From: Escherichia coli
GTDB lineage: Bacteria > Pseudomonadota > Gammaproteobacteria > Enterobacterales > Enterobacteriaceae
Length of the DNA: 64,000 bases
NCBI RefSeq assembly: GCF_017348835.2
Contig: NZ_CP071375.1
Strand: one strand, 5' to 3'
Made by a program: the position numbers and the translations under genes. Shown piece by piece: positions 3,409 to 35,727 of this stretch; position 1 is the stretch's first letter, and the number at the start of each line of letters is the position of its first letter. The notes beneath the pieces were generated by a model, which was not told where the DNA came from, searched no databases, and worked only from the letters and a program-made list of their open reading frames with translations.

Positions 3409-5070
3409 TCAAAATGTTTCCCAGTTTGGATCTTGTTCAGCAATTCGCAGTCGTGGCTGTGCCGGTGGTTGCTCACTGGCAGGACGGGATGGTGTTTGCG
3501 GTTTATTGGTGAGTGGGCTGGCTGCCAGACGAAACGTGGAAACCGCTTGCGTTAAACGACTAGCCTGTTCTTCCAGCGCAGCTGCGGCGGCAGCTGATTC
3601 CTGCACCAGCGATGCGTTCTGTTGCGTGACGCGATCCATTTCCGAAACCGCCAATGCGACTTGATCGATGCCACGGCTCTGTTCATCCGATGCCGATGCA
3701 ATCTCGCCCATAATGTCAGTCACGCGAGTGACAGCATTGACGATATTGTTCATTGTTTCCCCGGCGCTTTCGACCAGCACCGAACCGGTATCAACGCGCG
3801 AGACGGAGTCTTCAATGAGGGCTTTGATCTCTTTTGCCGCCTGGGCGCTACGACTGGCAAGATTGCGCACTTCGCCCGCCACCACGGCAAAACCACGGCC
3901 CTGTTCACCCGCACGCGCGGCTTCAACCGCGGCATTCAGCGCGAGGATATTAGTCTGGAAGGCAATACCGTCGATAACGCTGATAATGTCGGCAATTTTC
4001 TTCGAACTATCGGCGATCTCATGCATCGTTTTCACTACGCCATCCACCACTTTGCCGCCGTGCTGGGCGGTGTCGGAGGCACTTTGCGCCAGTTGCGAGG
4101 CCTGGCGGGCGTTATCGGCGTTTTGCTTCACTGTCGCGGTGAGCTGCTCCATGCTGGCGGCAGTTTCTTCCAGCGCGGATGCCTGCTGTTCAGTACGGGA
4201 GGAAAGATCGGTGTTGCCCGCCGCAATTTCACGGGTACCGGCATAGATGGCATCTGAACCTTCGCGGACATGAGTGACGGTGTCAGTCAAAGAGCGTTGC
4301 ATATGTGAAACGCTCTGCGCCAGGTCGCCCATTTCACTGCGCCCGTCAATGGTCAGGGTATTCGCCAGGTTACCACCGGCGATTTCGCGAATGTGAGCAA
4401 TAATTTTTGCCAGCGGTGTAAGCAACATACGGCGAATGCCGTACCACGCCACCAGCAGAATCAATACCACCACCAGCGCGATAACCGCCAGTTGCCACTG
4501 GGCAAATCGGTAATCATCTGCGTTGTCAGTGACGATATTGCGATACAGTTTTTCACTGCTGAGGGCGTACTGAGCAAACGCTTCGCCCATTGCATTTTGC
4601 ATTCCCTGGGTTGGCTGAGCGAAATAAGCTCCAGTATTGCCATAATCAAGATAATCAATCAGTTCAGTTAACGCTGTGTAATAGTTTTTATATTTTTCAT
4701 CAATATTACGACTGGTAGCGACCATTTCAGGTAACGGTGCCATGCTTTTGAATTTTTTATAATGAGTCGCGGCCTGGGCCAATGTTTTCCTGGCGCTATC
4801 GAGCAATTCAACTTTGGCGTTACTTTGTTGATTGGAGGAATCCATCATCATCCGCACCGCTGAACGACTCAGGTTAATGCGCGTTTGCAGCATTAAATCC
4901 CAGGTTGACGTCAGCTCGCCCTGCTGTTCCCGTAATTGATTGGAAACCACAAAGCTCTTCTGGCTATGGTGAAGGGAAGAAAAAAACAGACTGCCGGAAA
5001 TAAGCTGTAACAGTGCGAATACCCCCAGCACCATTACCAACAGCGTGACTACGCGGATACGGTTAATCAT
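3409..5070 (-). CDS. tar: Methyl-accepting chemotaxis protein II (aspartate/maltose sensor) Tar
   Basis: ORF track 3409..5091 is 5'-extended; known Tar starts [13 protein letters not shown] (553 aa) and ends with the NWETF pentapeptide. Confidence 0.95.
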
Positions 5071-5101
5071 AAGGCACCTTCCTGAAAACAAGTTGATCTC
5101 G

Positions 5102-5128
5102 TTATCGGCAAGAAGGGGGGAAACTTTA
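5102..5128 (-). promoter_or_regulatory. FliA (sigma-28) class III promoter of tar-tap-cheRBYZ
   Basis: Minus strand reads TAAAGTTT-N11-GCCGATAA, an exact match to the sigma-28 consensus, about 30 bp upstream of the tar start. Confidence 0.85.
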
Positions 5129-5155
5129 TTGCTGATGCCACCCGCCGCGAAATTG

Positions 5156-5186
5156 AAATAAAAAACCCGATGCGCAGATCATCGGG
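5156..5186 (-). terminator. Rho-independent terminator after cheW (end of the motAB-cheAW operon)
   Basis: GC-rich inverted repeat cccgatg...catcggg followed on the minus strand by a T-run. Confidence 0.7.
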
Positions 5187-5214
5187 TTCATTTCAATTGA
5201 GGAAATCGGGAGAA

Positions 5215-5718
5215 TTACGCCACTTCTGACGCCGCGCTATCTAACAGCGCCATCTCTTCGCTGTTCAGCAGTTTTTCGATGTTCACCAGAATCAACATAC
5301 GGTCGCCCAGTGCGCCCAGTCCAGTGAGATATTCTGTTGAAAGCGTCACGGCAAACTCTGGTGCCGGACGAATTTGCTCCGCCGTCAATGAAAGCACGTC
5401 TGAAACGCCGTCAACCACGATGCCGACCACCCGCTGTCCGAGATTCAGGACGATAACTACCGTGTTGTCGTTATAGTCCACATCCACCTGGCTGAACTTA
5501 ATTCGTAAGTCAACAATCGGCACAATAACGCCGCGCAGATTCGTGACGCCTTTGATAAACGCTGGCGTGTTCGCAATCCGTGTTACCTGATCGTAGCCAC
5601 GGATCTCCTGCACTTTCAGGATATCAATACCGTACTCTTCATCACCAAGGGTAAATACCAGAAATTCCTGGCCTGACGGCTCGCTGGCCAGCTTTGTTAC
5701 ATTCGTCATACCGGTCAT
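5215..5718 (-). CDS. cheW: Chemotaxis coupling protein CheW
   Basis: 167-aa ORF matching CheW. Confidence 0.96.
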
Positions 5719-5738: not shown

Positions 5739-8630
<2,892 letters not shown>

Positions 8631-8634
<4 letters not shown>

Positions 8635-9518
8635 GCTTCCTCGGTTGTCGTCTGTTGTTGCGGATTTTTCACCGCACGCACATGCTCTTCCAGTTCAATA
8701 AACGACGGACGTTCGCTGGAATAGAGCGTTTTGCGACCAAACTCAACGGCGATAGGCGGTGCGTAACCGTTCAGATTAGAAAGCAGTGTGACTTTGACGC
8801 ACTGCATCATTTTGCTGGTTTCGGCGCTTTTCTGACGTAAAACACTCGCTAATGGGGAAATAAATCCGTAAGCCAATAAAATGCCGAGGAAAGTCCCCAC
8901 CATCGCATGTGCGATAAGCGCCCCCAGCTCGGCGGCAGGACGATCGGCTGAACCTAACGCGTGAACGACCCCCATTACAGCCGCGACAATACCAAACGCC
9001 GGAAGTGAGTCCCCGACCAGCGCCAGACTGTTCGCCGGGACTTCTGCCTCGCTTTCGTGCGTCTCAATCTCTTCATCCATCAGGGCTTCGATTTCGAAGG
9101 TGTTCATGTGACCGCTGATAATCAGGCGCAGATAATCGACGATAAAATCAAGCATGACGCTATCCGCGATGATGCGTGGGTAGCTGGCGAAGATCTCGCT
9201 CTCACGGGGATTTTCAATATCACGTTCCAGCGAAAACATCCCCATCTGCCGCGATTTCGCCATCAACCGATAAAGCAGAGCCAGCAGATCCATATACATT
9301 GCTTTGGTGTATTTGGAGCGACGAAACAGCAACGGCAGCGCTTTCAGCGTGCCTTTAATCGCTTTTCCATTATTGCCGACAATAAACGACCCAATCCCTG
9401 CACCGGCAATAATCACCAGTTCAGCGGGTTGATAGAGTGCTCCAAGGCTTCCACCGGTCATCAAATAACCGCCGAAAACTGTACCGAGAACAACCAGGTA
9501 ACCTAATAAGATAAGCAC
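8631..9518 (-). CDS. motA: Flagellar motor stator protein MotA
   Basis: 295-aa ORF matching MotA. Confidence 0.96.
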
Positions 9519-9586
9519 GACATCATCCTTCCACTGTTGACCATGACAGGATGTTCAGTCGTCAGGCGTTAACGCGCGATTGGGGC

Positions 9587-9619
9587 AAAAAAAAGCAGCG
9601 GTACGTCGTTACCGCTGCT
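9587..9619 (-). terminator. Rho-independent terminator downstream of flhC
   Basis: Inverted repeat gcagcggtacgtcgttaccgctgc followed on the minus strand by an 8-nt T-run. Confidence 0.75.
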
Positions 9620-9644
9620 GGAATGTTGCGCCACACCGTATCAG

Positions 9645-10223
9645 TTAAACAGCCTGTACTCTCTGTTCATCCAGCAGTTGTGGGATAATATCGGCAGGAT
9701 TCTGGGAAAGTTTACGTCTTTTTACTGCCCGGGATGGCGGTTGACATAAGCTGCAGGCAAAGCTGCCAACAGGCTGGTGAGCGTGGGTAATAAAATTGCC
9801 GCCGCAGCAGTTGCAGCTGGAAAGTTGCAGTAATCCACTTTCAACAAACCGCACCAATGTCCAGGCACGGGTTAATGCCAGCAGCGGTCCTTCTTCTGCT
9901 TGCGGGCACTGTTCAAGGTATAAACGGTAGGCTTTGATCACCGCATCGACGCCATTACACAAACCGGTTTTCAGTAAAAACTGCCATGCATTACAGAACA
10001 TCGAAGCATGAACGTTTTGTTCCCAAGTCATAAACCAGTCGGTTGAGAATGGCAGCATGCCTTTCGGCGGTGGGCTTCCGCGCAGTTCTTTATAAAGTTT
10101 TATCAGGCGTCCGCGACTTAACTGTGTTTCGCTTTCCAGCATCTGCAAACGAGCGCCCAGGGTGATCAATTCCATTGCCAGCTGAATATCCCGCGCTTCC
10201 TGAACAATGCTTTTTTCACTCAT
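9645..10223 (-). CDS. flhC: Flagellar master regulator subunit FlhC
   Basis: 192-aa ORF matching FlhC, including the Cys-rich zinc site. Confidence 0.96.
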
Positions 10224-10225
10224 GA

Positions 10226-10576
10226 TCAGGCCCTTTTCTTGCGCAGCGCTTCTTCAGGCTGATTAACATCATTCAGCAAGCGTGTTGAGAGCATGATGCC
10301 GGTATGAATTTGCTGGAGATCGTCAACGCGGGAATCTTGCGTCAACTGAGTAATCGTCTGGTGGCTGTCAAAACGGAAGTGACAAACCAGCTGATTGGTT
10401 TCTGCCAGCTTAACCATTTGCGGAAGAGTCAGTGCCGCTAATGTTGTCGCCATTTCTTCATTTATGCCGAGACGAAACATAGCGGACGCTTTGTCCTGAA
10501 CAATCAGACGCTGTGCAAGTAGTAAATATGACAAGTTGATGTCATAAATGTGTTTCAGCAACTCGGAGGTATGCAT
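10226..10576 (-). CDS. flhD: Flagellar master regulator subunit FlhD
   Basis: ORF track 10226..10585 (119 aa, [10 protein letters not shown]...); the 116-aa form starts at [12 protein letters not shown]. Either start is possible. Confidence 0.93.
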
Positions 10577-11355
10577 TATTCCCACCCAGAATAACCAACT
10601 TTATTTTTATGCGGTTTCACCGCACCCCGTGATGTCGCCGGGAAGCCCCGGTAAAAAATAATTAGCATTAGAATAGTTGCGATAAGCTGCAATAAGCAGA
10701 GCCACCTTTTTGGTTTAATAAGTCCTTACAAATAGAAGGGGGTCTTTACACTTATCTAAGATTTTTCCTAAATCGACGCAACTGTACTCGTCACTACACG
10801 CACATACAACGGAGGGGGGCTGCGATTTTCAATAATGTGTGATGCAGATCACACAAAACACTCAATTACTTAACATAAATGTATAAGTCATACTTTTGTT
10901 TTGGGTGTATTTCAATCTGTTAAAAAGTTTTTCGCTACGCTAGCAAGCAAAAATGAAACAGGAATAATCGAAATGGGATGTTGCGCACAGTTAAAATAAC
11001 TCACCGTAAATAATCATCTGCTATAAATAATCACTTTCATGCAATACCAGATAAGCTATTTTTAAACAGACACTTACCGCACAACAAACTAATTAAATAC
11101 AAAGAAAGGCAACAATCAACTTAATGTTAATAAAATGTTTTGCATATATTAACCACTTGTTTAATGCGGGGAATCAGTACATTATTTTCTTATAATTACA
11201 GTTGAAATCATATGATTACCGAGAGTGATTGATTAATTGTCTTTACTAATAATCAGACTAATATTTACCTGTTTGACTGAGTTGGGATTGCGTCGTTTCT
11301 CCATTAGGAGTAAAGCTTTAATGTCACCTGAAGTTCACAGAATAAGGAACAGGTT
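10577..11355. promoter_or_regulatory. flhDC promoter and long AT-rich upstream regulatory region, divergent from uspC; no insertion sequence
   Basis: About 770 bp of AT-rich non-coding DNA between the flhD and uspC starts; no transposase ORF and no IS terminal repeats recognised. Confidence 0.75.
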
Positions 11356-11784
11356 ATGAGCTATAGCAATATTCTTGTCGCTGTTGCGGTTACACCGGAA
11401 AGTCAGCAACTGCTGGCAAAAGCGGTATCTATCGCCAGGCCAGTAAAGGGACACATCAGTTTAATTACTCTCGCTTCCGACCCGGAAATGTACAATCAAT
11501 TAGCTGCGCCGATGCTTGAAGATTTACGCAGCGTGATGCAGGAAGAAACGCAAAGCTTTCTTGATAAGTTAATTCAGGATGCGGGGTATCCCGTTGACAA
11601 GACGTTTATTGCCTACGGTGAGTTAAGCGAACATATTCTGGAAGTTTGTCGCAAATATCATTTCGATTTGGTGATTTGCGGTAATCACAATCACAGTTTC
11701 TTTTCGCGAGCATCCTGCTCGGCGAAAAGAGTGATTGCCTCTAGTGAGGTCGATGTGCTGTTAGTTCCACTTACGGGAGATTAA
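11356..11784 (+). CDS. uspC: Universal stress protein C
   Basis: 142-aa ORF matching UspC (YecG). Confidence 0.93.
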   Translation: MSYSNILVAVAVTPESQQLLAKAVSIARPVKGHISLITLASDPEMYNQLAAPMLEDLRSVMQEETQSFLDKLIQDAGYPVDKTFIAYGELSEHILEVCRKYHFDLVICGNHNHSFFSRASCSAKRVIASSEVDVLLVPLTGD

Positions 11785-11790
11785 CCGCTC

Positions 11791-15143
<3,353 letters not shown>

Positions 15144-33714: not shown

Positions 33715-35727
33715 TTAACCCTGCAGCAGAGACAGAACCTGCTGCGGTACCTGGTTGGCTTTTGCCAACACGGAGTTACCGGCCTGCTGGATGATCTGCG
33801 CTTTCGACATATTGGACACTTCGGTCGCATAGTCGGCGTCCTGAATACGGGACTGCGCTTCAGACAGGTTGGTAGTGGTGTTGTTCAGGTTGGTAACCGC
33901 GGAATCCAGACGGTTCTGCACCGCACCGAGGGAGGAGCGGAATTTGTCGATGGAGCTGATCGCTTCGTCCAGAGCTTTCAGGGGATCGGCGGTGGAACTG
34001 GATGCAGTAGTAGCTTCTGTTGTTAACTTACCATCAGCTGTTTCATAGATGGTACCACCGGTGCTGTTGGTAATAGCCCCATTTTTTTGTTCAAAGTAGG
34101 TTACATCTTTTGTAGCATTGGCTGAAAGTGCACCATCTTCGACATAAACATCAGCATTTGCAGCAGCTTTCACATCTCCATTGGAAACTGTGTAAGTTAC
34201 TGTACCTGTACCGCCCATATCAATGGTAAAATTGCTTTTTGTCAGATTTGCCATACCTTCGGCACTGACATGTGCGTTGGTGACATTGACAGTGTCTACT
34301 TTTGCTAAACTGGTGAACTGAGCGCCACTTCCTGTTGTGCTATAAACAGTGTTCTGGCCGGTACCTGAAGTTACGGTTAAGGTAGCATCCTTACTGTTAG
34401 CAATTAAATTATCTAACGAAGCAGCTGTATTTCCTCCAGCCGTTGTAGTGAATCCACCAGTAGTCGCATCAAGATAAAGTGCACTACCATCAGCCGCTGT
34501 TATGTTTCCATTACTTGCTACCAAAATGTCTGTAGCAGCGCCTCCCTCAATACTTACCTTAGCCGCAAATGCACCACCTGCAAGAATCTGAGAATTTGTT
34601 GAGGTCTGAATTCCTGCTCCTGCGGACTGAACAGACATTCCGGAAGCTGTACCAGAAGTAATTGTAATTGTAGTTGCAACCCCAACTGGAACCGCACCGG
34701 TAGAATCGCTGTTGGAAATTAAACCATCCCACGTCGCTGCGGTATCGTTACCTGCATTCGTTTTTGTCAAGTTTCCCTGTTTATCTAAATACAGCGTCGC
34801 ATTATCATCTGCCGCAGTAATTTTTCCATCCTGGGAAATATTAACTTTCTGCTCTTTACCACCAATAGTCACTGTCGCCTGCGACGAATCACCGGTGTTT
34901 GGATTAATGATGCTTAACGTCTTCGCTGAATCGGCACCATCTGCAGCAAAACTATAAGATTTACTTGCTGCATCATAGGTGTAACCATTCTTTGCAGCCA
35001 CGCCAAAAGCGTTTGCCCCTCCCCCAGTGATCACTGATCCATCGGTGATATTAGCTAACAGATCGGATGCTTTGGCTTTGTCATTACTAATTGTGTTTGT
35101 ATACGCGGTCACGCCATTGGTATCTGTGGTGCCCTTAGTGAAACCAGCCAGTTTTAAATCGTCGCTTGTCGCAGCTGTATTCGCTACAGAACCTTTACCG
35201 TTAACGTTAAAACCAGCCAGATTCAGCGTATCAGAGTCAATTTTCTTCAGATCAATAGTAATCGTTTCGCCATCGTTCGCGCCGACCTGAATTTTCATCG
35301 AGCCATCTTTTGACAGTACGTTCACGCCGTTGAACTGGGTTTGGCCGGATACGCGGTCAATTTCATCAAGACGGGATTTGATTTCGTCCTGAATGGAGTC
35401 CAGGTCAGAGGTGGAGTTAGTTCCGGTCGTCGCCTGAACCGTCAGTTCACGAATACGCTGTAAGTTGTTGTTGATTTCGGACAGCGCGCCTTCGGTGGTC
35501 TGTGCAACAGAAATACCGTCGTTGGCGTTACGTGCAGCCTGAGTCAGGCCTTTAATGTTAGAAGTAAAACGGTTAGCAATCGCCTGACCTGCGGCGTCAT
35601 CCTTCGCGCTGTTAATACGCAAGCCAGAAGACAGACGCTCGATAGAACTCGACAGCGCAGACTGGTTCTTGTTGATATTATTTTGAGTGATCAGCGAGAG
35701 GCTGTTGGTATTAATGACTTGTGCCAT
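33715..35727 (-). CDS. fliC: Flagellin FliC, 669/670-aa variant with a long central variable domain (non-K-12 H type)
   Basis: Conserved flagellin N-terminus (MAQVINTNSLSLITQNNINKNQSALSSSIERLSSGLRINSAKDDAAGQAIANRF...) and C-terminus (...LAKANQVPQQVLSLLQG) flank a roughly 400-aa Thr/Ser/Gly/Ala-rich middle region. Confidence 0.95.
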   Translation of the reverse strand: MAQVINTNSLSLITQNNINKNQSALSSSIERLSSGLRINSAKDDAAGQAIANRFTSNIKGLTQAARNANDGISVAQTTEGALSEINNNLQRIRELTVQATTGTNSTSDLDSIQDEIKSRLDEIDRVSGQTQFNGVNVLSKDGSMKIQVGANDGETITIDLKKIDSDTLNLAGFNVNGKGSVANTAATSDDLKLAGFTKGTTDTNGVTAYTNTISNDKAKASDLLANITDGSVITGGGANAFGVAAKNGYTYDAASKSYSFAADGADSAKTLSIINPNTGDSSQATVTIGGKEQKVNISQDGKITAADDNATLYLDKQGNLTKTNAGNDTAATWDGLISNSDSTGAVPVGVATTITITSGTASGMSVQSAGAGIQTSTNSQILAGGAFAAKVSIEGGAATDILVASNGNITAADGSALYLDATTGGFTTTAGGNTAASLDNLIANSKDATLTVTSGTGQNTVYSTTGSGAQFTSLAKVDTVNVTNAHVSAEGMANLTKSNFTIDMGGTGTVTYTVSNGDVKAAANADVYVEDGALSANATKDVTYFEQKNGAITNSTGGTIYETADGKLTTEATTASSSTADPLKALDEAISSIDKFRSSLGAVQNRLDSAVTNLNNTTTNLSEAQSRIQDADYATEVSNMSKAQIIQQAGNSVLAKANQVPQQVLSLLQG

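Follow-up and report, generated by a model that had tools for sequence, protein, structure and literature searches.

Is the regulatory region upstream of the flagellar master operon flhDC in this stretch of Escherichia coli DNA free of inserted DNA, or does it carry one of the insertion sequences (IS) found at this place in laboratory K-12 lineages? An initial annotation of the 64-kb stretch analysed here (the window) had described the flhD-uspC intergenic region as uninterrupted and flhDC as being under native control, and had pointed out that K-12 laboratory lineages commonly carry an IS at this position. The last point holds: MG1655 has an IS1H and W3110 an IS5 upstream of flhD, and IS insertion there leads to higher flhDC expression and motility (PMC5100188, PMC5493358, PMC11237407). 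We compared the intergenic region, called the spacer below, with occupied and unoccupied K-12 alleles, with natural isolates and with complete genomes of the species. Positions 10577..11355 are almost certainly the divergent regulatory region of E. coli flhDC and uspC in its ancestral, unoccupied state, and nothing in the sequence speaks against this.

The spacer and its unoccupied K-12 counterpart

The flhD-uspC spacer occupies exactly 10577..11355 and is 779 bp long (about 770 bp in the initial annotation). It is AT-rich, as had been described, with a G+C content of 35.2% compared with 50.4% for the 64-kb window and a minimum of 28.5% at 11000-11199. It lies between the divergent flhD and uspC genes in the wild-type arrangement, with flhC, motA and motB downstream of flhD, and the overall order is that of the E. 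coli chromosome: motB, motA, flhC, flhD, spacer, uspC, otsA, otsB. The features of the locus are as follows:

7708-8634, minus strand: motB
8631-9518, minus strand: motA
9645..10223, minus strand: flhC, coding for 192 aa, with the same protein sequence as in K-12
10226..10576, minus strand: flhD, coding for 116 aa, with the same protein sequence as in K-12
10577..11355, no strand assigned: flhD-uspC intergenic region, 779 bp, uninterrupted, 35% G+C
11356..11784, plus strand: uspC, 142 aa, divergent from flhD, 3 amino-acid differences from K-12

For flhD the ATG lies at 10576 on the minus strand. An ORF initiated by GTG would be longer, reaching 10585; in the near-identical strain PE164, PGAP uses the ATG, and its annotation there gives the same gene calls at matching coordinates. 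Of the chemotaxis and flagellar ORFs in the window, 29 were checked and all are intact (cheR-tap-tar-cheW-cheA-motBA, flhDC, fliZ, fliA, fliC, fliDST and fliE-R), as are the uspC and rcsA ORFs.

Other genes in the window gave some observations of their own. The fliC gene (33715-35727, minus strand) encodes a long flagellin of 670 aa, which we take to be probably of the H9 type, and its variable central region is matched at 99% or more in about 417 of 5426 genomes. Between yedK and fliE, the PE164 PGAP annotation has a gene for a 379-aa leucine-rich-repeat-domain protein that corresponds to window positions 42688-43827 (minus strand); presumably K-12 has only pseudogene remnants (yedN) at that position. 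The dgcQ (57799-59508) and yedA (61015-61935) genes are intact in the window and both are labelled 'frameshifted' in the PE164 record, the dgcQ difference being one base in an A run (58177); the PE164 frameshifts are likely to be homopolymer errors of that assembly, or real phase differences. The 3' end of otsA may differ in the O157 lineage: in O157:H7 PV15-279 (record 4269-5639) the gene encodes 456 aa and ends 60 bp from uspC, and in the window (11791-13215), K-12 and PE164 it encodes 474 aa and ends 6 bp from uspC.

The window is near-identical to the pig isolates PE164 and F2_81 and is not from K-12. Over the full 64 kb, 3 substitutions and two 1-bp indels separate it from PE164, all of them outside the spacer. 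The spacer itself is 100% identical to that of both pig isolates and 99.9% identical to that of many O157:H7 strains over its 779 bp; the match overlaps no annotated feature, and there is no notable difference between these natural isolates and the window.

Comparison with K-12 accounts for every base pair by which the sequenced laboratory strains differ in spacer length from the window. The MG1655 spacer of 1555 bp is the sum of 779 bp, a 768-bp IS1H (annotated with insA5 and insB5) and an 8-bp target duplication; the W3110 spacer of 1978 bp is the sum of 779 bp, a 1195-bp IS5 with its transposase gene, and a 4-bp duplication. Against MG1655 the window spacer aligns as two abutting blocks (query 1-305 and 298-779), and against W3110 again as two abutting blocks, with the IS5 at a duplicated TTAA. 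The flanks are homologous in both cases, over their whole length in MG1655: sequenced MG1655 (CGSC 7740) has IS1H and a duplicated CATAAATG, whereas the window has the single octamer and no IS1, and the W3110/RP437/MC1000-type allele, represented by W3110, has IS5 and two copies of TTAA, whereas the window has one TTAA and no IS5.

Taking the IS and one copy of the duplication out of MG1655 gives a K-12 empty site of 779 bp. The window spacer aligns with this construct without any indel and differs from it by 16 substitutions, and full-length homology (779/779 bp aligned) extends from PE164 at 100% to IS-free K-12 at 97.9%. The empty site is also found in K-12 itself: the K-12 records for EMG2 and some MG1655 stocks have a plain 779-bp spacer, and IS-free K-12 as a group (EMG2, WG1, non-motile MG1655 stocks and BW25113) shares with the window the 779-bp length, the gene arrangement, the IS targets and 97.9% identity without indels, and differs from it by the 16 substitutions, one of which gives the window a base at -64 that completes a CRP palindrome. 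The IS upstream of flhD has been described as an acquisition made secondarily by particular stocks (PMC11237407). Alignment to MG1655 and to IS1 and IS5, the check that the initial annotation had proposed, returns single target copies and neither IS terminal repeats nor a transposase fragment.

Promoter, leader and the CRP-site allele

The flhD transcription start was placed by two independent routes, both of which transfer positions from K-12 work and which agree on 10774. In the first, 198 nt separate the flhD ATG from 1978395, where the AsflhD annotation of K-12 has its 3' end. In the second, the published IS5 target TTAA at -96..-99 (PMC5100188) was located at 10870-10873 by the W3110 junction. 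Relative to this probable start, the following elements can be laid out:

10555..10774, plus strand: AsflhD antisense RNA region, corresponding to K-12 1978176-1978395, mapped by coordinates from the MG1655 annotation and PMC9600491
10577..10774, minus strand: flhD 5' untranslated leader, 198 nt, transcribed from a probable start at 10774 (a minus-strand G)
10757..10770, minus strand: RcsAB-box-like sequence TAGGAAAAATCTTA, at +5..+18, identical in K-12
10781..10786, minus strand: candidate -10 hexamer TACAGT, 4/6 to consensus, 7 nt upstream of the probable start
10804..10809, minus strand: candidate -35 hexamer TTGTAT, 3/6 to consensus, with 17 nt between the hexamers
10838..10853, no strand assigned: CRP-type site TGTGA-N6-TCACA, perfectly palindromic, with its centre at -71.5 relative to the probable start

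Core promoter, CRP site and 198-nt leader are thus all present as sequence elements at their canonical distances. With hexamers of 3/6 and 4/6 the flhD promoter fell below the threshold of a consensus promoter scan and was not picked up, the one match from that scan being an unrelated plus-strand hit below shuffle expectation. The core promoter is probably weak, judging from its hexamers, which fits dependence on an activator. CRP reportedly activates flhDC from a site at -71.5. We take TAGGAAAAATCTTA to be the RcsAB box, which is said to have been described in earlier work. A terminator scan found none, and an Rfam scan of 9000-12500 at E <= 1 gave no match, either for AsflhD or for the flhD leader.

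Similarity to the Salmonella flhD upstream region (71%) is limited to the leader and core promoter, reaching to about -80 (window 10577-10856), and the distal 500 bp, where IS land, have no detectable Salmonella counterpart. Because the similarity stops at about -80, the distal AT-rich tract is lineage-specific.

The 16 substitutions relative to K-12 are distributed over the leader (+36, +37, +54 and +74), the CRP site (-64) and positions between -218 and -504, ten of them in the distal half toward uspC. In a six-lineage alignment K-12 alone deviates at +36, +37, +54, -64, -218 and -465. The -64 substitution is at position 10838, which is T in the window and also in O157, LF82, O104:H4 and S931B, and C in K-12, where the half-site reads CGTGA/TCACG. 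We counted this allele in complete genomes with allele-specific 30-mers, having rejected a 61-mer with other polymorphisms inside it: the window's version (T) is present in 4699 of 5426 genomes (~87%), and the K-12 version (C) in 417, most of which are laboratory derivatives of K-12. The perfect CRP palindrome is the majority allele of E. coli, and the K-12 half-site CGTGA is a minority one.

These differences give rise to the alternative that survives best, namely that the spacer is free of IS and yet not equivalent to the native K-12 promoter, the completed CRP palindrome and the leader changes causing higher or otherwise different flhDC expression. The T at 10838, its prevalence across the species and the isolation of K-12 at six positions all speak for it. 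The changed base is, on the other hand, at the outermost half-site position, where a change matters less than at the G or the second G of TGTGA, and repression acting through the upstream tract may dominate anyway. We regard this alternative as possible though doubtful; if it were true, conclusions drawn from poorly motile IS-free K-12 would not transfer. A bolder version, that the CRP half-site and leader changes lower basal flhDC expression in K-12, making the IS-free 'non-motile' phenotype and the strong selection for IS partly a K-12 peculiarity, strikes us as unlikely; were it correct, K-12 non-motility and IS selection would not be properties of native E. coli control. A modest caution follows for either version: 'native' does not equal 'K-12 minus IS', and IS-free K-12 is an imperfect proxy for natural isolates.

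Insertion sequences, their targets and the spacer across the species

Direct searches gave no sign of IS1 or IS5. IS1H from MG1655 and IS5 from W3110 were used as BLAST queries (word size 7) against the 64-kb window, and both produced only chance-level matches there, the best being 18 nt at E = 0.1 for IS1H and 19 nt at E = 0.16 for IS5. The spacer contains no ORF longer than 40 aa, and its longest stop-free stretch, 49 codons, is below all 30 dinucleotide-preserving shuffles (mean 77). Its inverted repeats are short (<=17 nt), AT-rich and 75-91% complementary, and the best pair of 20-mers at IS-like spacing, sought as terminal inverted repeats, matches at 13/20 against a shuffle mean of 13.7. 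The gap-free alignment to the K-12 empty site and these searches bear out the claims of the initial annotation that the region is uninterrupted and free of transposase-like ORFs and IS-like terminal repeats.

The known landing sites of IS1 and IS5 are likewise all present as single, unoccupied copies:

10870..10873, no strand assigned: IS5 target TTAA, at -96..-99, single copy and unoccupied, identified from the W3110 IS5 junctions and PMC5100188
10874..10881, no strand assigned: IS1 target CATAAATG, at -100..-107, single copy and unoccupied, which flanks IS1H as a duplicate in sequenced MG1655
10940..10943, no strand assigned: IS5 target CTAG, at -166..-169, single and unoccupied, position from PMC5100188 and target listed in PMC5493358
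11089..11092, no strand assigned: IS5 target CTAA (TTAG on the flhD strand), at -315..-318 and 513-516 bp from the flhD ATG, unoccupied

The TTAA site at -96..-99 is taken by IS5 in W3110, RP437 and MC1000-type strains (PMC5100188). The CTAG position is that of Lee and Park, as cited in PMC5100188, and the CTAG target appears in PMC5493358 Fig. 4. For the most distal site, an IS5 has been described at -315 (PMC5100188) and 516 bp upstream of the start codon (PMC11237407). The window thus differs from the IS1-activated (MG1655-type) allele in having no IS1, no InsA/InsB ORFs and no duplicated 8-9 bp target, and from the IS5-activated (W3110/RP437-type) allele in having no IS5, no transposase ORF and no duplicated YTAR target. 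For any other IS or mobile element, the length of the spacer matches the species norm of 778-780 bp.

Copy number points the same way. Of 5426 E. coli complete genomes, 5421 have the spacer, as a single copy (median 1 place per genome, maximum 2), and at word size 11 only 13 of 72,556 plasmid records match it; the plasmid matches listed are chromosome-sized or chromosomal-fragment/mislabelled records, Salmonella flhD upstream regions (71% identity) and one apparent contaminant. Since an IS fragment is expected to be multi-copy within genomes and abundant on plasmids, and the spacer is neither, it contains no mobile DNA. The apparent contaminant is a separate curiosity: plasmid record HM037272.1 (Bacillus thuringiensis CT-43) carries at 68388-68877 a 490-bp segment 97.6% identical to window 10866-11355, the match starts exactly at the W3110-type IS5 junction, and the segment looks like contaminating E. 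coli K-12 DNA.

Uninterrupted spacers are also what the species as a whole has. With the 779-bp spacer as query, 5271 of 5421 genomes had at least 80% in one place and 118 more had it in two places; with a 400-bp query covering the insertion-prone part, 5247 of 5414 had at least 80% in one place and 151 more in two, the one-place counts (~97%) being upper bounds on the uninterrupted fraction because some IS1-split copies are joined into one place. The split and partial cases that we opened were K-12 derivatives, or IS-mediated deletions removing flhDC. In the urine isolate E. coli E05 (NZ_CM143908.1) an IS1 adjoins a deletion that runs from the spacer through flhDC, motAB and cheAW into tar, and in the laboratory mutant EV36 mutant 5a (NZ_CP093369.1) an IS5 adjoins a deletion that covers flhD together with the 5' part of flhC. 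An IS-free spacer is the species norm, so its description in the initial annotation is correct but unremarkable, and already known; as the window is not K-12, absence of an IS is the species default and not a notable state.

Two further alternatives concern IS that the assembled sequence might fail to reveal. An IS could once have been present and been precisely excised, or could be present in part of the source population and absent from the consensus assembly. Precedents exist in the loss of IS5 from MC1000 derivatives and in mixed Keio and CGSC 7740 stocks (PMC5100188, PMC11237407), and subpopulations with an IS, known from some stocks (PMC11237407), would not be visible in a consensus sequence. 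A precise excision would be traceless and its product the same sequence as one that was never occupied; the targets, however, are all single-copy, and the spacer is the same in two independent pig isolates and nearly so in many O157:H7 strains, and we consider a lost or mixed IS very improbable. It is extremely improbable that the spacer hides the degraded remnant of an IS, a miniature inverted-repeat element or a lone terminal repeat that alters flhDC control, and for anything of ~28 bp or more this is already refuted. The spacer is AT-rich with many short imperfect inverted repeats, but these are no better than shuffled, the IS1 and IS5 matches are at chance level, and the spacer is single-copy with almost no plasmid matches. 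When it is aligned with the K-12 empty site and with four other lineages, the only indel is a 1-bp deletion in O104:H4.

Control of flhDC by an unoccupied regulatory region

With no IS in the spacer, the cis-regulatory region is the native one, and native control was the right reading of the cis region in the initial annotation, with the proviso that the IS is absent yet 16 substitutions separate it from K-12. We propose, in line with the textbook mechanism, that a weak core promoter of the sigma-70 type, some 198 nt upstream of flhD, would be activated by cAMP-CRP bound at -71.5 and held down by the repressors H-NS, LrhA, OmpR and RcsAB acting on the AT-rich upstream and leader DNA. The 198-nt leader would allow further control by small RNAs, CsrA and AsflhD. 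An IS1 or IS5 landing in the upstream tract would relieve this repression, as in K-12 laboratory stocks, and such relief is absent here. Both the repressor sites and the IS activation in the AT-rich upstream tract are published (e.g. PMC5100188, PMC5493358, PMC11237407).

On this arrangement of sites, flhDC expression is predicted to be low to moderate and dependent on conditions; that the sites are occupied is likewise a prediction. The level of expression and motility also depend on trans factors encoded outside the window, among them LrhA, OmpR, H-NS, the Rcs system, ClpXP and small RNAs. None of the known IS landing sites is taken, and if active IS1 or IS5 copies exist in the genome, selection could bring up motile IS mutants; the 64-kb window itself shows no such copy.

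For this strain the finding has little importance beyond correct annotation: the flagellar master operon lies behind a standard, multiply regulated promoter, and motility should be condition-dependent and not locked on as in IS-bearing laboratory K-12. For the species, nearly all knowledge of flhDC regulation rests on a K-12 promoter with a minority CRP half-site.
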